This document shows positions 4,135 through 62,891 of a DNA stretch of 64,000 bases, in pieces. The stretch lies in the NCBI GenBank assembly GCA_030066875.1, contig JASJAS010000007.1, positions 10,744 through 74,743 of the forward strand, in the 5' to 3' direction. The position numbers were made by a program, and so were the translations under genes. The notes beneath the pieces are model-generated. The model was given only the letters and a program-made list of their open reading frames with translations, did no database searches and was not told the origin of the DNA. Within the stretch, counting starts at the first letter, position 1, and the number at the start of each line of letters is the position of its first letter. Origin of the DNA: Acidimicrobiia bacterium. GTDB taxonomy: Bacteria; Actinomycetota; Acidimicrobiia; Spongiisociales; UBA5794.

Positions 4135-4933
4135 GCGGAACCTGGACGGCAGGAATGTGGTCATCACCGGCGGTGGCGGCGGCTTGGGCGCGGCACTCGG
4201 CCAGGAGTTTGCCTATTCAGGCGCCAACGTTGCCCTGCTCGACGTCGACTTTGCGAATGCAGTTGTTGCCGCCGACAAAATCAAACAGCGGCGGGCCATC
4301 GCTATCGAATGCGATGTGACAGATCGCGAGCAATGCCGGTCGGCTATCGCTCGGGTCCACGAGCAGTTGGGACCAATCGACGTCCTGGTGAACAACGCCG
4401 GTCTGTCCCACCGCAGCGCCTTCACTGAGACCGATCTGGCGGTGATCCATCGCATCATGGACATCAACTTCTGGGGAGCCGTCAACTGCACCAAGGAAGC
4501 GCTGCCGACACTCCTCGACCGTCGCGGTGTCATCGTGGTGATCAGCTCGACGGCGGGTTTCGCTCCCCTCCTGGGACGCACCGGCTACGCCGCCTCCAAG
4601 CACGCGTTGCACGGCTTCTTCGGGACTCTCCGCACCGAGCTCGCTGCCGACCATGTAGATGTGCTGATCGCCGCCCCCTCCTTCGTCGACACGCCGCTGC
4701 GCCATCACACGATCGGCGGTGACGGTGAAATCACCGATCATCCCCAGTCGCGCGTCGGCAAGATGATGTCCCCCGAGGATGTTGCGGAGCGGATCGTGTG
4801 GGCCGTGGAACGGCGCCGCAAGTCGTTGGTCCTAGGCAATGTGGGCAGGCTGACACGGGTCCTCAATGCACTTGCCCCCTCGGTGTACGAGCGGCTCATG
4901 ACACGCAAGCTCAGCTCCGAGCTCGACCGCTAG
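4127..4933 (+). CDS. short-chain dehydrogenase/reductase (classical SDR)
   Basis: GTG at 4127 follows GGAGGG and overlaps the upstream stop by 8 nt. Motifs TGGGGGLG, NNAG and YAASKHAL. Confidence 0.85.
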   Translation: MAKRNLDGRNVVITGGGGGLGAALGQEFAYSGANVALLDVDFANAVVAADKIKQRRAIAIECDVTDREQCRSAIARVHEQLGPIDVLVNNAGLSHRSAFTETDLAVIHRIMDINFWGAVNCTKEALPTLLDRRGVIVVISSTAGFAPLLGRTGYAASKHALHGFFGTLRTELAADHVDVLIAAPSFVDTPLRHHTIGGDGEITDHPQSRVGKMMSPEDVAERIVWAVERRRKSLVLGNVGRLTRVLNALAPSVYERLMTRKLSSELDR

Positions 4934-36122: not shown

Positions 36123-37016
36123 TTAAGCAGGCCGGGTTGGGACCGAATGATCCCAGTCGGCAAGCAAGGTGCGTAATGCGGCAACGAACGCCAGCGGCTG
36201 ATCGAGTATCAGGTGATGGTGCGCCTCCGGGATCGTCACCACCGGCGCGTTTTCGTCCATCAATTCATACATATACGCGGCGGTGTCGGGCGGAACGGTC
36301 ACCGAATGCTCGCCGCGAAAGAGAGCCACCCGGCACTTGACGGTCGCCAGTTGGTCTCGCAAGGAAACGAGCGTGTGCTGAAACAGCGCCGGATCGAACT
36401 TCCACGTCCAACCCGCATCGGTCTCGTGCAACGAGTGACGAGCAATGTGATCGATGATGAAGTCGTGTTCACAGGGTTGCGGTGGAATGAGCCGGAAGTG
36501 ACCAAGAGCGGTGGTCAGATCCGGATAGACACCCGGCTTGCGGAACGCCCGGCCTCTGGCACCTTCTTCAGACTCGGGGTCGGGTCGACGCACCGGTGTA
36601 TCAACGATCACAGCACCGCGCAGCCGTTCACCGTGGTCTGAAGCTGTCTGAATGGTGACCATTCCCCCGAGGCTGTGACCGACCAACACCGGCGGACCCG
36701 GGAACCCGGCGTGGTCGGCGACCGCCATAACCTCGCAGGCCCAAGCCGAATGCGAATACGCCGTACGACGACCGCTATCACCGTGCCCCGACAAGTCCAA
36801 CGCCACGACGTGCCAGTCCTCGGCAAACATCGGCGCTAGAAAGGTCCACCAATGAGCGTGGGCAGCGCCGCCGTGAACGAGCACAAGGCCGGGCTGGGCT
36901 CGGTTGCCCCATTCGAGATAGTGAATCGGGATTGCGTCCACGTCGATGACCCCTTCGTCGAAGGGTGTCGCCATCGCCCGGTAGAACCAATCCGGGACGG
37001 CCTTGCCGTCAGTCAC
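36123..37016 (-). CDS. alpha/beta-fold hydrolase
   Basis: LVLVHGGAAHAHWW, nucleophile elbow GHSLGG, and C-terminal EAHHHL. 8-nt overlap with the upstream gene. Confidence 0.8.
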   Translation of the reverse strand: MTDGKAVPDWFYRAMATPFDEGVIDVDAIPIHYLEWGNRAQPGLVLVHGGAAHAHWWTFLAPMFAEDWHVVALDLSGHGDSGRRTAYSHSAWACEVMAVADHAGFPGPPVLVGHSLGGMVTIQTASDHGERLRGAVIVDTPVRRPDPESEEGARGRAFRKPGVYPDLTTALGHFRLIPPQPCEHDFIIDHIARHSLHETDAGWTWKFDPALFQHTLVSLRDQLATVKCRVALFRGEHSVTVPPDTAAYMYELMDENAPVVTIPEAHHHLILDQPLAFVAALRTLLADWDHSVPTRPA

Positions 37017-38724
37017 CTGCGGACTCCGTCACGCCGAGCAACTCATCGGGGAGCGGGAACCAGCGCAGGTGCTCGAAGTCCTCGGTAACCAGTGGTGCGC
37101 CCAACGGCTCGGGTGGTTCGCTCGTTCCGATGTCCTCGAGGATCCGGCGTGCTTCGTCGATGTATCCGACGAGGTCGTCATCCGAGTGCAGGTGGGGGCG
37201 GTGGCGGAACTCCATGACACCGCTCGAGTAGTCGATGTCGTGCAGGCTCAGCGGCGGCTCCGACAGGGGCTGCCGGTGAATCCACAGTGCGGTTTCCGGA
37301 TCGAATCGGTAGTAGGGCAGAAGTCGCCAGCCCTCGTCGGCTACGAGGTGCACGGCATCGAGGATGAAGTCGACGACCTGGTCCGAGATGAAGTAGTTGA
37401 AATTGACCCTGATCCAACCCGGTTTGATGCCTTCGCACCCGCGAGTGATCTCGCGCTCGAATTCGTGCGAGCGTTCCAGGTCAATGCCGAGCAGGCGGTG
37501 CCCATAGGGTCCCGCACAAGAACAGCCGCCCCGCGACTGGATACCAAACAGGTCGTTGAGGACCGCTACGACGAAATTGTGATGCAGGTACCGCGATCCG
37601 TAGCGAACCACGAAAGACACGATCGAAAGCCGGTCCGCGTCGTGATTGCCCAGGATCTCGATATTGGGATTGGCCGACCATGACGCGATCGCCTTGGTTG
37701 TCATCTCTTCCTCGCGCTGTTTGATGGCCTCAGCGCCGACGGCTTCCTTCAGTTGGAATACCAGACCCGCTCGAATCGACTCGATGATGGCGGGAGTACC
37801 TCCCTCCTCCCGATGCTCGATGTCTTCCAGGTAGCGGTGGTCGACCGGATTGACGTACGCAACCGTGCCGCCGCCAGGAACCGCGGGCACGCGATTGGCG
37901 AACAAATCCTTACGTGCAACCAGCACACCGGGTGTTCCTGGTCCTCCGATGAACTTGTGCGGTGATAGGTAAACGGCGTCCTTGTAGGCGAGATGACCGT
38001 CAGGTCCCGTCGAGGGCGGGGTCATCGATATGTCGACGTACGGTGCCGCGGCGGCGAAATCCCAGAAGGAAAGGGCGCCGTGCTTGTGGAGCAGTATCGA
38101 GATGGACTCCACGTCGGAGATGATGCCGGTGACATTCGAGGCGGCAGAGAACGACCCGATCTTCAGTTCACGGTCGGCATGTTCAACCAGTTGCTCTTCG
38201 AGTTGGCGGAGATCGATGTGGCCGTCGGCATCCTCATCGATGGTCACCACGTCGGCTATCGATTCCCGCCAGGGCAGCTCGTTGGAGTGGTGCTCGTAGG
38301 GCCCGATGAAGACGACCGGACGCTCCCCGGGTGGGATGCGAGACGAGAGCCCGTATTGATCGTCGAGATTGCAGGGGATCCGAATCCCGAGGACACCGAT
38401 CAGCCGGTCGATCGCACCGGTCATACCGGAACCACAGAAGAGGACGGCGTGCTCGTCTGTGGCACCGACGCAGCTGCGAATCAGGTTGCGGGCTTCTTCC
38501 CGAAAGCGCGTTGTTTGCAGCCCGGTGCCCGAGGATTCCGTGTGGGTGTTGGCATACAGCGGCATCACCGCTTCGCGGATGTAGTCCTCGATGAATGCCA
38601 AGGATCGCCCAGAAGCCGTGTAGTCGGCATAGGTGACCTTGCGCGGCCCGAAGGGACCATCGACAACTTCATCGCGTCCGATGACCGCCGTGCGGATGGT
38701 CTCGATCAATTGGTCGGGATTCAT
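37009..38724 (-). CDS. aminotransferase class V-fold PLP-dependent enzyme (long, 571-aa form)
   Basis: ANTHTESSGTG and SPHKFIGGPGTPGVLV (PLP Lys), with a C-terminal extension of unknown function. Confidence 0.8.
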   Translation of the reverse strand: MNPDQLIETIRTAVIGRDEVVDGPFGPRKVTYADYTASGRSLAFIEDYIREAVMPLYANTHTESSGTGLQTTRFREEARNLIRSCVGATDEHAVLFCGSGMTGAIDRLIGVLGIRIPCNLDDQYGLSSRIPPGERPVVFIGPYEHHSNELPWRESIADVVTIDEDADGHIDLRQLEEQLVEHADRELKIGSFSAASNVTGIISDVESISILLHKHGALSFWDFAAAAPYVDISMTPPSTGPDGHLAYKDAVYLSPHKFIGGPGTPGVLVARKDLFANRVPAVPGGGTVAYVNPVDHRYLEDIEHREEGGTPAIIESIRAGLVFQLKEAVGAEAIKQREEEMTTKAIASWSANPNIEILGNHDADRLSIVSFVVRYGSRYLHHNFVVAVLNDLFGIQSRGGCSCAGPYGHRLLGIDLERSHEFEREITRGCEGIKPGWIRVNFNYFISDQVVDFILDAVHLVADEGWRLLPYYRFDPETALWIHRQPLSEPPLSLHDIDYSSGVMEFRHRPHLHSDDDLVGYIDEARRILEDIGTSEPPEPLGAPLVTEDFEHLRWFPLPDELLGVTESAGD

Positions 38725-39001
38725 GCGCTGAATCTAGCTGAGCCCGCGCGCCATACGAGTGGGTGAGCTCGGCTCATACTGAGTGGGCGTGGCTGTAGCC
38801 TGTCGTAATCAGCTCCGAACAGCAGAATCGCTCGGCAGTCGCTCTCGGAAGTGCGATCGCCATCGGAGCCGGTGTTGGGACCGCGCTCTTCGCCGGCTCG
38901 GACAACCCGGTTTGGATTGGAGTAGGTGCCGGCCTCGGCGTTCTGCTGTGGACCACCTGGCAGGGTCGGCGACCCCGTAGCTGAGTGCCCTAGGCGATGA
39001 T

Positions 39002-39769
39002 CTAGGCAGGCCGGCAGACCTTGCACGGCCGAAACCCGCCCTCACCGGCAAGCTGCGGAGAGCGGAACTCGACCCGATGCTGTTCCGTGATCCGGCGGGC
39101 GTTCCGGCACGTCGGATAGCAGAAGATCCCCGTGGTGTCGCTGCCCATGTAGCGAAGCGAACCCATTTCGAATAGCGCAGGGTCCATTCCCTCGTGACTG
39201 AGCAGATCCATCTTCATCTGCGGCCCGAACGCATAGTTGCCCACCGCACCGTCGCTCCGTACAACACGGTGGCACGGAACCACAATCGGTACCGGGTTGC
39301 GTGCCAGCGCCGATCCCACCGCACGCACTGCTCCAACGTTGCCGATCTCTCTGGCAACCCACCCGTAGGGTCGCACCTCGCCCGGCGGGATGGCGGCGGT
39401 GATGTCGAGTACGTGGACCTGGAAGTCGGTTAGCTGCCGCAGATCGACGGGGAGCTTCCCGAGACGGCCGGTTTCCAGGGCGCGTTGTGTGGCAGTAGCC
39501 AGCCTTGCCGGCATCTCGACCGCCGGATAGACAGGACGACCTACGTTGCGTGCGTGGATCCGGCGGAACTCCGACTCATCCTCCGTGGGTACCACAGAGG
39601 AGATTCCGTTGGGGTTGAAGGCGATGTGGAGCAGCCCGATGGGCCCGGCGGTCGTAACGTATTCGTCGGCGAGCGCGGTTCGTACCAGTACCCGCGGTGC
39701 AATGGTCTCCGGGGACGCCTCCTGGGTCGCCAGCATCTCAGCAATCTGGGATTCGGTTGGATCGTTCAT
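39002..39769 (-). CDS. ogt: methylated-DNA--protein-cysteine methyltransferase (Ogt/MGMT) with a C-terminal Ada-type Zn-Cys4 domain
   Basis: Active site IVVPCHRVV. The C-terminus TTGIFCYPTCRNARR...GGFRPCKVCRP parallels E. coli Ada TTGIFCRPSCRAR...AGFRPCKRCQP. No HTH is visible. Confidence 0.85.
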   Translation of the reverse strand: MNDPTESQIAEMLATQEASPETIAPRVLVRTALADEYVTTAGPIGLLHIAFNPNGISSVVPTEDESEFRRIHARNVGRPVYPAVEMPARLATATQRALETGRLGKLPVDLRQLTDFQVHVLDITAAIPPGEVRPYGWVAREIGNVGAVRAVGSALARNPVPIVVPCHRVVRSDGAVGNYAFGPQMKMDLLSHEGMDPALFEMGSLRYMGSDTTGIFCYPTCRNARRITEQHRVEFRSPQLAGEGGFRPCKVCRPA

Positions 39770-40326
39770 GTCGTTTCCTCCGTAGCAAGCATGGTGCGGA
39801 GTCGGGTCAAACCACGACTCACGTCTGACTTCACGGTCCCGGCGGGTCGATCGAGGACCTCACCGACCTCGGCGTAGCTCAAGCCGATGACGTGACGCAA
39901 GACAATCGCATCACGTTGTGGCGTCGGTAGCCGGGCAAGCCGGTCTCGCCATTCGTCGATCGCGACGGCGGTGACGGCGTCGCTCTCAACCGAGCCGGGC
40001 CCGGCGGGATCGTGGTATCCATCGAGCGGCACCTGACTCGGCCGCCGACCCCGGGTTCTGGCGTGGTTGCGACACAAGTTGATAGTGATGGTGAACAGCC
40101 ACGGCTTCAGCCGAAGCTCGGCAATACGCTCGGGTCGATAGTCCGCCAGGGCTCGATAGGCGCGGACGAAGACCTCTTGCGTCACGTCTTCCGCATCCTG
40201 CTGTGAAGGCAGCCAGCGGCGCGCCCCATTGAACACCAGCCCTTGCATCTCTTCGAGCATCGTCGGAAACGCTTCATCCAGGTCGGCCGCCAGCCGCTTC
40301 TTCAGGACACCTTCAGTGGGGCTCAT
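39766..40326 (-). CDS. ECF-type RNA polymerase sigma-70 factor
   Basis: Region 2 (DAEDVTQEVFVRAYRAL, WLFTITINLCRNH) and region 4 (QRDAIVLRHVIGLSYAEVGEVLDRPAGTVKSDVSRG). ATGA overlap with the ogt-like gene. Confidence 0.85.
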   Translation of the reverse strand: MSPTEGVLKKRLAADLDEAFPTMLEEMQGLVFNGARRWLPSQQDAEDVTQEVFVRAYRALADYRPERIAELRLKPWLFTITINLCRNHARTRGRRPSQVPLDGYHDPAGPGSVESDAVTAVAIDEWRDRLARLPTPQRDAIVLRHVIGLSYAEVGEVLDRPAGTVKSDVSRGLTRLRTMLATEETT

Positions 40327-40355: not shown

Positions 40356-40381
40356 AACCCCAATCGAGCGAGCGCGGTTGC
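40356..40381 (-). promoter_or_regulatory. candidate ECF-type promoter (GCAACC-N17-GTT) upstream of the sigma gene
   Basis: The minus strand reads GCAACC at 40381-40376, a 17-nt spacer, then GTTGTT from 40358. This lies about 30 nt before the ATG at 40326. It resembles the GGAAC-N16/17-GTT pattern only loosely. Confidence 0.25.
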
Positions 40382-40388
40382 ATTGGAT

Positions 40389-42059
40389 TCAGCTTGCCAG
40401 TTCGCGACGCAGCAGGTCGAGCCCCACCGGACCCACCTCGAGCAGGCGGGCGTGGAACGCTTTCTGATCGAATCCGGCGCCCACACGTTGCATCGCCTCA
40501 TTCCGTAGGTCGAGGATTGCCCGCTCCCCGACCTTGTAGGCGATCGCCTGCCCCGGCCAACCGAGATACCTCGTAACCTCCGATTCGGCATTCGGCTGAC
40601 CGAGTGTGGCGTAGCGCATGAGCATGTCAACGGCGGTATCGAAGGTCCAGGGCTCCCCGGGATGGAAGGGCTGCCCTTCCGGAATCGGCAGTTCTAGATG
40701 CGACCCGATGTCGATGACAACGCGGCACGCGCGCAACATCTGGCCCGAGAGCCAGCCAAAGACGTAGTCGGGCTTCTCGAAGAACCCGAGCTCGTTCATC
40801 AATCGTTCGGCGTAGAGCGCCCAACCTTCTCCGGAGCCGGGCTTCCACACCCAGAATCGGTGTAGCCGCGAAAGCTTCTCAGCGAGGGAGATCTGGACAC
40901 CGACCTGGAGATGATGGCCAGGAAAGCCTTCGTGATATGCGGTGCTGACTTCGTCGAACACCGGGTAGGGACCGGCGGGAGTCAACGACCACCAGACACT
41001 GCCGGGACGGGCGAAATCTTCAGATGGGTTCACGTAGTAGGCCCCGAGGGACGAACCCGGCGGAGCGATGTTGACCGTGACGGTACGGATCTCCTCTGGG
41101 ACGTCGAAGTGCGATCCGGAAAGCCGCTCGAGCGCATCCTCTAGTCGATCGCCGATGAACGCCTTCAGCGCGTCGGCGTCCGGGACTGTCCGAGCAGGAT
41201 CGGTACGCAGCACCTCGTGCGCCGCGGCGACATCGGCACCGGGTGCCACTTGCGCCGCGACTTGCTCCATCTGCCTCCTGATCGACGCGATCTGGTCCCA
41301 GCCCCATTCGTAGGTCTCGATCGGATCGATCTCTGTGCCCAGGAATCGGTAGGCAGCTCTCACATAGCGCTCGGGACCCACGCCGTCTCGCTCGGCGGAG
41401 TCAGCGGCGTAGGTGTAGGCCAGGTAGTTACCAAACTCGGCAAAGGCACGCCTCGCCTCTGTTACCGCGTCCTCAAGGCGCGCCAGCAGGCGGTCCTCCC
41501 CGTTGGCCCGTTGGTAGTCACCGAGAAGTGCCGTCAACCGGGACGTCCCGGATTCACTGACCCGACACTGCTCCACGGCAGCGCGCACCTGGCGTTCGGC
41601 CACCGCCATCCCTCTTCTTCGGCCCTCGTCCAGGCTGGCGCGATAACCATCGAGCGCCGCAGGAAGACGTTCCAGCCGATATACGATCTGGGTCCAATCT
41701 CGCTCCGTTTCTTTGGCCATGTGATCCCAGATCTCGCGAATACTCTGCAGGCTGGACGACATCGAGTTGAGGTCGCGCAGATGATCTCCGTGCCCGAAGT
41801 AGTCGATCTCCTCGTTGAGGGTCGTTTTGGCGAGGTTGATTGCCAGCCGATCCCAGTCGTCTTTCGGTCGGTCGACCTGTTCGACGCGGGTCCGTAGCCA
41901 GCCGATCCTGGCAACTGCTTCGGCCGCACCGTCGGGGCTGAGATCCGGCCAGCTGTCGTCGTGGCCCGCCAGTCCGAGTTCCGTAGCGATGTCGGGGAAG
42001 AGCCCGGCGAGCTCGTCGACTATCTCGCTGCTGAGCGCATAGATGGGGTGTTTTTCCAC
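40389..42059 (-). CDS. DUF885 family protein (metallopeptidase-like)
   Basis: AYHEGFPGHHLQ motif, with length and layout typical of DUF885. Confidence 0.8.
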   Translation of the reverse strand: MEKHPIYALSSEIVDELAGLFPDIATELGLAGHDDSWPDLSPDGAAEAVARIGWLRTRVEQVDRPKDDWDRLAINLAKTTLNEEIDYFGHGDHLRDLNSMSSSLQSIREIWDHMAKETERDWTQIVYRLERLPAALDGYRASLDEGRRRGMAVAERQVRAAVEQCRVSESGTSRLTALLGDYQRANGEDRLLARLEDAVTEARRAFAEFGNYLAYTYAADSAERDGVGPERYVRAAYRFLGTEIDPIETYEWGWDQIASIRRQMEQVAAQVAPGADVAAAHEVLRTDPARTVPDADALKAFIGDRLEDALERLSGSHFDVPEEIRTVTVNIAPPGSSLGAYYVNPSEDFARPGSVWWSLTPAGPYPVFDEVSTAYHEGFPGHHLQVGVQISLAEKLSRLHRFWVWKPGSGEGWALYAERLMNELGFFEKPDYVFGWLSGQMLRACRVVIDIGSHLELPIPEGQPFHPGEPWTFDTAVDMLMRYATLGQPNAESEVTRYLGWPGQAIAYKVGERAILDLRNEAMQRVGAGFDQKAFHARLLEVGPVGLDLLRRELAS

Positions 42060-42111: not shown

Positions 42112-43041
42112 CTACGCAGGCGGCGACCCGCCCAGCATCAGCTCTTCGATGTGTTCTCGCGCCTCCCTGTCGTCGGGAACCTCCAGAAGCGCCTGTTGAA
42201 AGTCATCCGCAGCAAGGGCATGCTCACCGCGGTTCTGGTGGATCACGCCTCTGCCGACGAGCGCTATCGCTTTGACCGACGCGGCTCGATTGGGGTATTC
42301 GAGTACCCGGGCCAGCACCGCGATCGCCTCTTCGAAGCGGCCCAGTTCCTCGAGAGCGCGCCCCCTGTAGGCCAGCATCAGAGCGGTGATGTCGTCATCG
42401 TTGTATACACCCTCGGTGGCTTCGAGAACATGTTCAAACCGACCGCTTTCGTAGAACAGCTCGGTGAGTGAAAGCTTGACGTGGGATGTTTGCTCGGCAG
42501 AGGTGAGCAGATCGATCGCGGCGTCATGGTCGCTGCGTGCCTGATAGAGCTCGGCGAGAAGCAGGATCAGCGAGTTTCGTTGCAGCGGTAGGTGCACCAC
42601 TACTCCGGCGGCGATGACGACGGTAAGACCGGCCTCGGGGAGGTATTCCCGCACAAAGTGGTGACCCCCGATGTCTTCATCACTTGCAACTGCTTCCCCA
42701 AGGAGAGAGATGCCTCGATCTAGAGATGACTCGAGGAGCAACAGACCGGCCAGAGCATTGCCGAGGTTGCGGTACTTTGGATACTCGCCGGCGGAGGACA
42801 ATATCTGTTCCGGGTCGCCCGTGGCGACGGCGCGATGAAACGCCTTCTCTGCCTTCGGGGCCATCATCCCGGGTTTCTGGGAAGCCACGAGTTCCGGGTA
42901 TCGATCGGGCTCCTCGAAGTCCCAACTCAGATCGCGAAACAGGGGGCCTTCGCGGCGCTCTCCGGCCCGCCACTCCAAGGTGCTGTCATCGGCGTAGACC
43001 CGGTAGCGCCGCACCGGCCCTCCACCAAAACTGAAGGTCAT
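42112..43041 (-). CDS. tetratricopeptide-repeat protein
   Basis: ATG at 43041 follows GGAGGA. The C-terminal half has TPR-like helical repeats (ALMLAYRGRALEELGRFEEAIAVLARVLE). Confidence 0.6.
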   Translation of the reverse strand: MTFSFGGGPVRRYRVYADDSTLEWRAGERREGPLFRDLSWDFEEPDRYPELVASQKPGMMAPKAEKAFHRAVATGDPEQILSSAGEYPKYRNLGNALAGLLLLESSLDRGISLLGEAVASDEDIGGHHFVREYLPEAGLTVVIAAGVVVHLPLQRNSLILLLAELYQARSDHDAAIDLLTSAEQTSHVKLSLTELFYESGRFEHVLEATEGVYNDDDITALMLAYRGRALEELGRFEEAIAVLARVLEYPNRAASVKAIALVGRGVIHQNRGEHALAADDFQQALLEVPDDREAREHIEELMLGGSPPA

Positions 43042-43150
43042 CGCATCCTCCGAGCCGGGCACCACACCCGACGAACCCGGCTCCCAACATTATCCGACGC
43101 AGACCGTATTGCGAGTAGCATCGGCGGACTCAGCGATTCAAGGAGGTCAG

Positions 43151-62510: not shown

Positions 62511-62891
62511 CTAGCGCGCCGCTATCACTTCGATCTCGACCTGGACGCCCAAGGGCAGCGCGGCCACCTCGACGGTCGAGCGCGCCGGCTTGGCATCGGC
62601 CACATACTCTCCGTACGCCTCGTTGACCACAGCGAAGTCGGCCATGTCGGCCAGGAAGATGGTGGTCTTGACGATATCGGCATAAGCAAGACCGAGATCG
62701 CCCAGGATATTGCCGATGTTCTTCATTGTCTGATGCGTCTCGGCCTCGACCCCGCCGTCAACCAAGCGATCCGCAGAGGTATCCATGCCCACCTGTCCCG
62801 AGATGAAGACGAACCCGTTCGCTTCCGTTGCAACGGAATACGGGCCGACCGGGGCGGGGGCACTGGGTACGTCGAGGATCTTCTTAGGCAT
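62511..62891 (-). CDS. ridA: RidA/YjgF family reactive-intermediate deaminase
   Basis: APAPVGPYS...FISGQ at the N-terminus and ARSTVEVAALPLGVQVEIEVIA at the C-terminus. Confidence 0.85.
   Translation of the reverse strand: MPKKILDVPSAPAPVGPYSVATEANGFVFISGQVGMDTSADRLVDGGVEAETHQTMKNIGNILGDLGLAYADIVKTTIFLADMADFAVVNEAYGEYVADAKPARSTVEVAALPLGVQVEIEVIAAR

Follow-up and report, generated by a model that had tools for sequence, protein, structure and literature searches.

In Ada, a methyl group is irreversibly transferred from a DNA methylphosphotriester to a zinc-ligand cysteine, and this turns the protein into an activator through its AraC-type HTH. The E. coli protein is switched via methylation of Cys38 and touches the sigma subunit (PMC4437013). 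A system related to the locus studied here is found among the ECF sigma factors, where the ECF122 passage of a review describes a group from Actinobacteria, with a representative from Cellulomonas, that has no recognisable anti-sigma factor and has a 6-O-methylguanine DNA methyltransferase as a conserved neighbour; the mechanism is listed there as unknown and the methyltransferase as a neighbour that "could be involved" (PMC8999054). ECF122 is not mentioned in the main text or the preprint of the ECF classification of Casas-Pastor et al. 2021, and we found no experimental study of the sigma/methyltransferase pair in the searchable literature. The original prediction for this DNA, which knew of no characterised example, thus stands as regards experiment and has to be amended in that the review passage already catalogues the pairing as ECF122 (PMC8999054). 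Our analysis places the locus as a real and ordinary-looking member of this catalogued, experimentally uncharacterised system, ECF122-like by description.

The sigma gene lies at 39766..40326 of the window (the whole 64-kb stretch of DNA that was analysed), on the minus strand like every feature given below, and encodes a group 4 ECF sigma factor of 186 aa that has no regions besides 2 and 4. It matches Sigma70_r2 (2.2e-17) and r4_2 (3.9e-13) in Pfam and scores above the family threshold of TIGR02937 (83.8 bits, cut-off 42.9). The partner gene (39002..39769, minus strand) encodes 255 aa and is preceded, 7 nt ahead of its ATG, by a GGAGG Shine-Dalgarno sequence (39777..39781, minus strand) that falls within the 3′ end of the sigma coding sequence. 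The plus-strand letters tcat at 39766-39769 read ATGA on the minus strand, where the TGA of the sigma gene shares letters with the ATG of the partner gene, exactly as had been predicted, and this overlap is consistent with translational coupling of the two genes. Stop/start overlaps of 4 nt are a common layout for sigma/anti-sigma gene pairs.

In 77/77 testable related loci the orthologous sigma gene immediately precedes the partner gene in the same orientation, and the overlap is of 4 nt (ATGA/GTGA) in 55 of 78 pairs, the rest being mostly -1 or +1. A reverse census from the sigma side gave the same picture, given that even distant sigma homologues (52-58% identity) keep the partner; the co-conservation of the sigma and MGMT/Ada-Zn genes, on which the original prediction had staked its idea, was therefore found from both sides. 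No other co-conserved gene was found in 80+ loci, so that no other candidate regulator is linked to the sigma factor. Neighbours considered as possible DNA-repair genes were rejected, the recurrent ones (DUF885, class-V aminotransferase, alpha/beta hydrolase and others) reflecting lineage synteny and being non-repair, and an additional MGMT occurs in the flanks of only 3 of 88 loci. An XRE HTH gene after the partner in three loci (L081-L083) is missing from the window and was likewise set aside. Compared by published description, the likeness to ECF122 lies in the methyltransferase beside the sigma factor (77/77 loci) and in the lack of any other conserved neighbour; the ECF122 passage names the methyltransferase and not the Ada-type zinc module, the N-terminal extension, the coupling or the promoter reported here (PMC8999054). 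The pair was found in Acidimicrobiia, Actinomycetes, Chloroflexota, Dormibacterota and others, and its spread to Acidimicrobiia, Chloroflexota and Dormibacterota is absent from that description (PMC8999054). Cultured carriers include Rubrobacter radiotolerans (RSPS-4), Nonomuraea gerenzanensis, Amycolatopsis anabasis and Streptomyces spp. (among them NBC_00464).

The partner protein (AlphaFold model with pLDDT 90.5 and pTM 0.82) begins with a family-specific two-helix extension that canonical Ogt does not have (residues 1-33; 39671..39769, minus strand). Its helices span residues 6-14 and 23-30 in the model, P20 is invariant and L28, T31, L33, A34 and D35 are conserved among orthologues, and we consider the segment a candidate for binding the sigma factor. 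An MGMT N-terminal domain follows at residues ~34-105 (39455..39670, minus strand); it is recognised by its fold in a Foldseek match of the partner to 1sfe (165 residues, both domains; 168 columns, TM 0.83), as the original prediction of this domain would have it, and Pfam is silent. Residues 1-112 as a whole match zero Pfam families, even at E<=10, zf-HC2 and other anti-sigma families included. The MGMT catalytic and DNA-binding domain occupies residues 115-194 (39188..39427, minus strand; PF01035, 1.3e-29, 102 bits against a cut-off of 27; TIGR00589, 91.8 against 46.4) and contains the predicted active site IVVPCHRVV. The codon of its PCHR cysteine, Cys166, is at 39272-39274 (minus strand), and this residue is kept in 75/75 orthologues (100%).

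At the carboxy-terminal end, where the partner reads TTGIFCYPTCRNARR...GGFRPCKVCRP, residues 207-254 (39008..39151, minus strand) form an Ada-type Zn(Cys)4 module (PF02805 Ada_Zn_binding; 1.7e-9, 38 bits, cut-off 23). Its cysteines are spaced C217-x3-C221-x27-C249-x2-C252, which agrees with the original count, and the E. coli sequence given for comparison (RTTGIFCRPSCRAR...AGFRPCKRCQP) was confirmed by alignment to the N-Ada chains 1adn and 1wpk, in which Cys217, Cys221, Cys249 and Cys252 pair one-to-one with Ada Cys38, Cys42, Cys69 and Cys72. Cys217 (codon 39119-39121, minus strand) aligns with Cys38, the acceptor of methyl groups from methylphosphotriesters. The module aligns to Ada residues 32-74 with 41% identity (TTGIFC...RPCKxCRP), superposes 49-50 residues on 1u8b and 1wpk, with an rmsd of 1.3 A over 49 columns for 1u8b, and thus passes the Ada-Zn profile and resembles the N-Ada fold, two points on which the tail might have failed. 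It is incomplete, the match being confined to profile positions 18-64 of 65, with positions 1-17 unmatched and the N-terminal helix (Ada residues ~1-25) missing. The four zinc cysteines, whose conservation had been named as a further test, are kept in 97-99% of orthologues, and all five cysteines including Cys166 in at least 97%. The partner is accordingly predicted from its sequence to bear two suicide methyl-acceptor sites, Cys166 for O6-alkylguanine and Cys217 for DNA methylphosphotriesters.

Both suicide modules in a single protein, together with the matching zinc ligands, make the partner similar to E. coli Ada. However, the order N-Ada Zn(Cys)4, AraC-type HTH, C-Ada MGMT of the latter is inverted, with MGMT first and the zinc module last, as had been noticed originally, and no AraC-type HTH (HTH_18/AraC) was found in the partner by Pfam. 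The earlier statement that the protein has no HTH holds for this type only, since the MGMT C-domain has a DNA-binding HTH of its own. The NCBIfam Ada model NF011964 gives 107.9 bits, far from its cut-off of 345, and the first ~17 positions of the zinc-domain profile are missing. The partner shares its two-domain fold and PCHR site with stand-alone Ogt/MGMT proteins, the M. tuberculosis Ogt 4bhb being its closest PDB sequence match (8.6e-17), but differs from them in the 33-residue N-terminal extension, the 50-residue C-terminal Ada zinc module and the obligate pairing with a sigma factor.

Upstream of the sigma gene, in the 62-nt gap that separates it from a DUF885 gene, is an ECF-type promoter, TGCAACC-N15-GGGGTT (40356..40382, minus strand), with -35-like and -10-like blocks, 29 nt from the sigma start. 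The original prediction had seen here a weak GCAACC-N17-GTT motif; it is in fact strongly conserved, the consensus TGCAAC(C)-N16-G[G/T]GTT being found upstream of the sigma gene in 55 of 70 loci and in 5 more identified later, i.e. in at least 60, with a fixed spacer (16 nt in 52 of the 55). The motif also occurs in Streptomyces plasmids. It is of the AAC/GTT type and autoregulatory in type, a putative target of its own sigma factor. The operon's own copy is the only exact one in the 64-kb window, a copy with one mismatch at 62806-62832 being at chance level within the window, and beyond the operon 816 kb of flanking DNA contained effectively zero copies, so that no regulon member beyond the operon was found there. 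In a sequence logo the 30 nt ahead of the motif are devoid of information and show no operator-like element, and scans of the region for Rfam families, sigma-70 promoters and terminators were empty. The operon resembles that of E. coli Ada in its positive autoregulation, which is here predicted from the promoter type, and differs from it in lacking an Ada box ahead of the promoter, specificity being expected to come from the dedicated ECF sigma factor.

A natural variant of the operon is present on two independent Streptomyces plasmids, in which the MGMT domain of the partner has lost otherwise invariant residues and the Ada-Zn site is intact, and in which a canonical, separate Ogt gene is found downstream, giving a three-gene form. 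Given that MGMT has decayed and the Ada-Zn site has not, the zinc module and its scaffold, rather than O6-meG repair, would seem indispensable, and the gain of the downstream Ogt points to alkylation repair as the output of the operon. The variant thus speaks further for the zinc module as a sensor. This three-gene form adjoins cluster-type regulators and SAM-cycle genes. Such a neighbourhood hints at self-protection against alkylating metabolites.

In regards to mechanism, the pair is probably a self-contained alkylation-damage switch, and we consider the chances evenly balanced that it is, in full, a two-gene, positively autoregulated operon whose partner both repairs DNA and regulates its own sigma factor. 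A positive sigma loop at its own promoter requires a brake. The dedicated ECF122-like sigma factor would read promoters of its own type, TGCAACC...GGGGTT, and would be made in fixed proportion to its soluble partner through translational coupling. In an undamaged cell the unmethylated partner would keep the sigma factor inactive, probably via the N-terminal two-helix extension and the zinc module, and the irreversible transfer of a methyl group from damaged DNA would change how the partner is charged or folded and free the sigma factor, which would then transcribe the operon. Fresh unmethylated partner would repair the DNA and recapture the sigma factor after the damage has cleared, the whole amounting to an Ada-like adaptive response through a sigma factor that replaces the AraC-type HTH. 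The first suggestion, that the sigma factor is bound or released according to the methylation of its partner, came through each of its refuting conditions open to computation and is plausible. More tentatively, and with some doubt on our part, the partner could represent a new class of "suicide" anti-sigma factor, in which DNA-derived methylation of the Zn-Cys and/or the MGMT Cys releases a sigma factor bound by the two-helix segment.

A Rosetta-stone search with a concatenated sigma and partner query returned one fusion, P0241. Its junction shows a TAATG overlap in the adjacent frame, after GGAGG, and given that it is a singleton with such a junction it is probably an artefact of a 1-nt indel. 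An alignment (A3) in which MAFFT had put sigma region 4 on the MGMT region was dropped, and the model was made from an unpaired alignment (A4) in which misplacement is confined to the sigma tails of ~10 residues. The model of this covalent, probably artefactual fusion has a pTM of 0.71, from an unpaired alignment and with no contact map, and its sigma part, likewise from the probably artefactual fusion, gives a TM of 0.74 to SigW-RsiW and of 0.40-0.43 to holoenzyme sigma. Structure predictors frequently give a lone ECF sigma factor the compact form regardless. As proposed, the system would be similar to the ZAS pairs RsrA-SigR, RsiW-SigW and ChrR-SigE in having a co-transcribed Zn-thiolate partner whose modification frees an ECF sigma factor, and the modelled sigma, from the probably artefactual P0241 fusion, resembles SigW of the RsiW complex. 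In contrast to the ZAS proteins, the partner has neither the HxxxCxxC motif nor a four-helix anti-sigma domain, two helices preceding an MGMT fold instead; its zinc site, with four cysteines, is of the kind used by Ada for repair, and the proposed signal is irreversible S-methylation from DNA, not oxidation.

The switch is supported, at the level of sequence, by the 77/77 pairing, the 4-nt overlaps in 55 of 78 pairs, the conserved active sites, the promoter and the Streptomyces variant, by analogy with E. coli Ada, in which Cys38 methylation is the switch and which also makes contact with the sigma subunit (PMC4437013), and by the listing of ECF122 without an anti-sigma factor in the review passage (PMC8999054); the P0241 model with its SigW-RsiW-like sigma, probably from an artefactual fusion, is weak evidence in the same direction. 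Against it, residues 1-112 of the partner resemble no anti-sigma family in Pfam, no regulon member beyond the operon was found in the 64-kb window and the 816 kb of flanks, and a plain repair enzyme carried as cargo would be just as likely to have its catalytic sites fully conserved. Under the latter explanation, which we find rather unlikely, the partner is a bifunctional repair enzyme and merely the conserved target of a sigma factor that is controlled from elsewhere, whether through an unlinked anti-sigma factor, another transcription regulator, phosphorylation or proteolysis. Its two catalytic sites are indeed fully conserved and enzyme-like, no anti-sigma-like domain was detected in it, ECF operons commonly include effector genes, and the review passage gives the methyltransferase merely as a conserved neighbour (PMC8999054). 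However, a brakeless autoregulated ECF sigma factor would run away, and 80+ loci offer no other conserved partner; the tight 4-nt coupling across phyla exceeds the needs of co-expression, and it is hard to explain why Streptomyces would retain a partner that is only an enzyme despite its decayed MGMT and a real Ogt.

The partner could also act positively, the methylated form losing charge repulsion, binding DNA, contacting sigma region 4 and aiding the holoenzyme, and the unmethylated form being neutral. The MGMT and Ada-Zn domains are both DNA-binding, 1u8b and 1t38 being DNA complexes, and E. coli Ada acts in this manner and contacts the sigma subunit (PMC4437013). Such a co-activator is nevertheless improbable, given that no conserved activator site lies upstream of the -35 block, that the partner has no sequence-specific HTH, and that ECF sigma factors are usually activator-independent, so that without induction the system would still be on; the closed rather than open sigma in the P0241 fusion model is weak evidence to the same effect. 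It is very improbable, finally, that the signal read by the Zn(Cys)4 site is an oxidant or electrophile acting on it directly, as in RsrA, RsiW and ChrR, and not a methyl group from DNA. Zinc-thiolate sites are reactive in general, and it is a zinc anti-sigma complex, SigW-RsiW, that the modelled sigma matches best in structure; yet the module fits the Ada repair site closely (TTGIFC...RPCKxCRP, 41% identity, rmsd 1.3 A) and is invariably fused to an MGMT scaffold, and the extra Ogt gained by the Streptomyces operon points to alkylation.

Since the system is small, with two genes and one promoter, and has cultured carriers, the ECF122 question is directly testable, and as an orthogonal sigma/promoter pair that takes a chemical input it could also serve as a genotoxin biosensor. 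On the "suicide" anti-sigma reading, one sensor chemistry would have served at least twice to build an adaptive response to alkylation, with an AraC-type HTH and with a sigma factor. If the partner does control its sigma factor, it would be the first anti-sigma factor, or co-regulator of a sigma factor, to be switched by S-methylation derived from DNA, and this would explain alkylation sensing in those Actinomycetota, Chloroflexota and relatives that are without an Ada-type HTH regulator.

The ECF sigma factor gene (39766-40326, minus strand, 186 aa) and the partner ORF lying 3′ of it (39002-39769, minus strand, 255 aa) share an ATGA in which the TGA stop of the sigma gene overlaps the ATG start of the partner (39766-39769, minus strand; the plus strand reads tcat), as the original prediction had stated, and a GGAGG read from the sequence stands 7 nt ahead of the partner ATG (39777-39781, minus strand). 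Pfam matched Sigma70_r2 and r4_2 in the sigma protein, and in the partner it recovered both expected domains, PF01035 (MGMT, 1.3e-29) at residues 115-194 and PF02805 (Ada_Zn_binding, 38 bits against a cut-off of 23) at residues 207-254. The order is inverted relative to Ada and no AraC-type HTH was matched by Pfam in the partner, both as had been proposed. Positions 1-17 of the PF02805 profile were unmatched, the Ada domain being shortened N-terminally, and the NCBIfam model for full-length Ada scored 108 bits on the partner, under its cut-off of 345. The AlphaFold model of the partner, based on an alignment of 32 homologues, is confident (pLDDT 90.5, pTM 0.82) and comprises two short helices (residues 1-33), a complete two-domain MGMT (TM 0.83 over 168 columns to E. 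coli C-Ada 1sfe with Foldseek), which bears out the predicted N-domain and core, and a compact zinc module that fits methylated, DNA-bound N-Ada 1u8b (Foldseek; rmsd 1.3 A, 49 columns, 41% identity). Since sequence alignment to N-Ada chains pairs partner residues 210-253 with Ada 32-74, the zinc-site parallel of the original prediction was correct, as was the Ada sequence it gave; Cys217, Cys221, Cys249 and Cys252 are the equivalents of Ada Cys38, Cys42, Cys69 and Cys72, with one additional loop residue. Cys38 is the methylphosphotriester methyl acceptor of Ada. Judged by every criterion of sequence and predicted fold, the partner contains a bona fide MGMT.

Relatives were sought in one genome per species, which gave 80 partner-homologue loci (43-66% identity), mostly from Acidimicrobiia, with others in Actinomycetes (Amycolatopsis, Actinomycetospora), Chloroflexota, Dormibacterota and MAGs labelled Acidobacteria. 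Two features on which the original prediction had staked itself hold: 77 of the 80 loci, every one not cut by a contig end, have a window-sigma homologue directly upstream on the same strand, and the four zinc cysteines are conserved in 97-99% of orthologues (Cys166 in 75/75). In 55 of 78 pairs the end of the sigma gene and the beginning of the partner gene share 4 nt (ATGA/GTGA), the rest being mostly at -1 or +1. In the reverse census, sigma homologues at just 52% and 58% identity keep a PF01035+PF02805 gene directly downstream, and clustering of all ORFs left sigma and partner as the only genes conserved among the loci. The pairing is clearly non-random; it is obligate and translationally coupled, with a dedicated ECF sigma.

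The surrounding genes in the window are a DUF885 gene upstream (40389-42059, minus strand) and class-V aminotransferase and alpha/beta hydrolase genes downstream (37009-38724 and 36123-37016, both minus strand). Their order is kept in the closest relatives (18 and 13 loci by ORF clustering, and 11 for the hydrolase; also loci L081-L084) and not in distant ones; this is synteny among close relatives, and nothing evident ties the three functionally to sigma and partner. A 114-aa XRE-type HTH gene stands between partner and aminotransferase in L081 (5539-5883) and likewise in L082-L083; the 277-nt gap of the window (38725-39001) holds no detectable remnant of it and no Rfam match. Farther upstream, a TPR protein (42112-43065, minus strand) matches in its central part the N-terminal domain of EccA1 (PF21545, 3.1e-8), the ESX-1 secretion ATPase, and has no ATPase domain.

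A search with the concatenated sigma and partner found one natural fusion, P0241 (463 aa; locus L085, 4001-5392, ENA ERZ25039530 contig_41406). P0241 is a singleton whose junction (near 4575-4592, GAAGGAGGCCGTCTAATG) shows, in the adjacent frame, a TAATG stop/start overlap; it is therefore probably the product of a 1-nt assembly indel rather than a true fusion. In two long-read MAG assemblies (L025, 5383-6720; L041, 5218-6696) the sigma gene looks frameshifted, with its N-terminal part running on in the partner's frame, probably also through assembly indels. Modelled as one covalent chain with an unpaired alignment (A4), P0241 gave pLDDT 84 and pTM 0.71, with low confidence at positions 1-5, 99-118 (the linker joining regions 2 and 4) and 403-405 and in the C-terminal eight residues; given this pTM and a largest rigid unit of 55% of the chain, the model suggests a placement of the sigma domains with some confidence. 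The sigma part of this probably artefactual covalent chain best fits SigW of the SigW-RsiW complex (TM 0.74), and its fit to sigma chains of the holoenzyme is poor (TM 0.40-0.43, rmsd 21-27 A). As the chain is covalent and lone ECF sigmas are commonly predicted in compact form, the result supports binding weakly.

In regards to the promoter, a strict pattern located a conserved two-block motif, TGCAAC(C)-N16-G[G/T]GTT, ahead of the sigma gene in 55 of 70 loci, 52 of these having a spacer of exactly 16; five further loci, whose start codons had been miscalled, also have it, and control regions had essentially no copies. The window copy (40356-40382) lies 29 nt before the sigma start and is the sole exact one in 64 kb. 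The original prediction had placed a weak GCAACC-N17-GTT near the sigma start; the location stands, and the supposedly weak element is a portion of this strongly conserved motif, which belongs to the AAC/GTT type that an ECF sigma would be expected to use and is sited where an autoregulatory promoter would be. The dereplicated logo (T-G-C-A-A-C-C ... C-G-G-G/T-G-T-T) is uninformative over the 30 nt that precede the -35 block, so there is no Ada-box-like operator. Scans of the region called neither a sigma-70-type promoter nor an intrinsic terminator nor an Rfam element. A copy with one mismatch occurs at 62806-62832 (minus strand, TGCAACGGAAGCGAACGGGTTCGTCTT), the chance expectation being 1.1 per window.

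The module was also found in cultured organisms, namely on Rubrobacter radiotolerans RSPS-4 plasmid 2, in a Nonomuraea gerenzanensis record and on three Streptomyces plasmids. On the Rubrobacter plasmid (L086, 5330-5366) the -35 block is GAAAC and not GCAAC, followed by the usual 16-nt spacer and GTGTT, and the two genes overlap by 11 nt. In the two Streptomyces plasmids examined (L087, 5372-7388, NZ_CP107901.1; L089, 3342-5344, NZ_CP107856.1), whose surroundings differ, the promoter motif again stands ahead of the sigma gene, the partner is annotated merely as 'Ada metal-binding domain-containing protein', and a canonical stand-alone Ogt follows directly in the same direction. Both partners have an intact zinc module and an MGMT-like domain that retains PCHR and has lost the otherwise-invariant F116/Q117, Y135, AVRAVG helix, Y179 and K186. 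That the zinc module is kept while the MGMT-like domain is degraded and an Ogt added argues that this module and the scaffold are what the partner cannot dispense with, and that the operon has alkylation repair as its output. Both three-gene forms adjoin a SARP-family regulator and SAM-cycle genes (metK/metF or metF/metH), surroundings that resemble a biosynthetic gene cluster and suggest self-protection against an alkylating metabolite.

The entry for ECF122 (representative: Cellulomonas sp. Root930) in a 2022 review of non-canonical ECF sigma factors, citing a 2021 reclassification, lists it among groups without an anti-sigma, with 6-O-methylguanine DNA methyltransferases as conserved neighbours and a mechanism given as 'unknown' (PMC8999054). 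From this defining gene context we infer that the window sigma is an ECF122 member. The earlier claim of no characterised example therefore needs dividing: going by that entry the pairing was already catalogued, and our literature search found no experimental study linking ECF sigma or anti-sigma factors to alkylation, Ada, methylphosphotriesters or O6-methylguanine. With the association already catalogued there, we rank the locus as a member of a known, uncharacterised kind.

That the partner regulates the sigma is the reading we favour, at about even odds: a sigma under positive autoregulation would call for a brake, for which the partner is the only linked candidate. It could instead be merely the repair enzyme of the operon, with the sigma controlled elsewhere, which would fit its unimpaired active sites and the fact that it has no anti-sigma domain. 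However, this rather doubtful explanation accounts neither for the missing brake, nor for the tight coupling across phyla, nor for the retention of the partner in Streptomyces beside a real Ogt. In E. coli, methylation of Cys38 relieves charge repulsion and makes Ada an activator, which contacts the sigma subunit of RNA polymerase (PMC4437013); a methylated partner that similarly assists the holoenzyme is unlikely here, given that no conserved element lies upstream of the promoter and that the partner has no sequence-specific HTH. Sensing of redox or electrophiles by the zinc site is more improbable still, given that the module resembles the repair site of Ada in detail and always stands in an MGMT context.

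The interpretation of the original prediction is plausible. It has come through every refutation test that was open to computation, and the Streptomyces variant and the conserved promoter add to its support; the central step, control of sigma binding by methylation, is a proposal. The system would work like Ada in sensor chemistry and autoregulation, although it is no Ada regulator, the HTH being missing and the domain order inverted, and it may work like a zinc-containing anti-sigma factor, although the partner has neither HxxxCxxC nor the four-helix domain. The 33-residue two-helix extension, which is absent from ordinary Ogt and matched no family, is a candidate sigma-binding element. Among the ways in which the partner might regulate the sigma, we tentatively favour that of a suicide anti-sigma, switched by methyl groups taken from DNA: the unmethylated partner would sequester the sigma, irreversible methyl transfer from damaged DNA to the partner would release it, and newly made partner would repair the DNA and then recapture the sigma.
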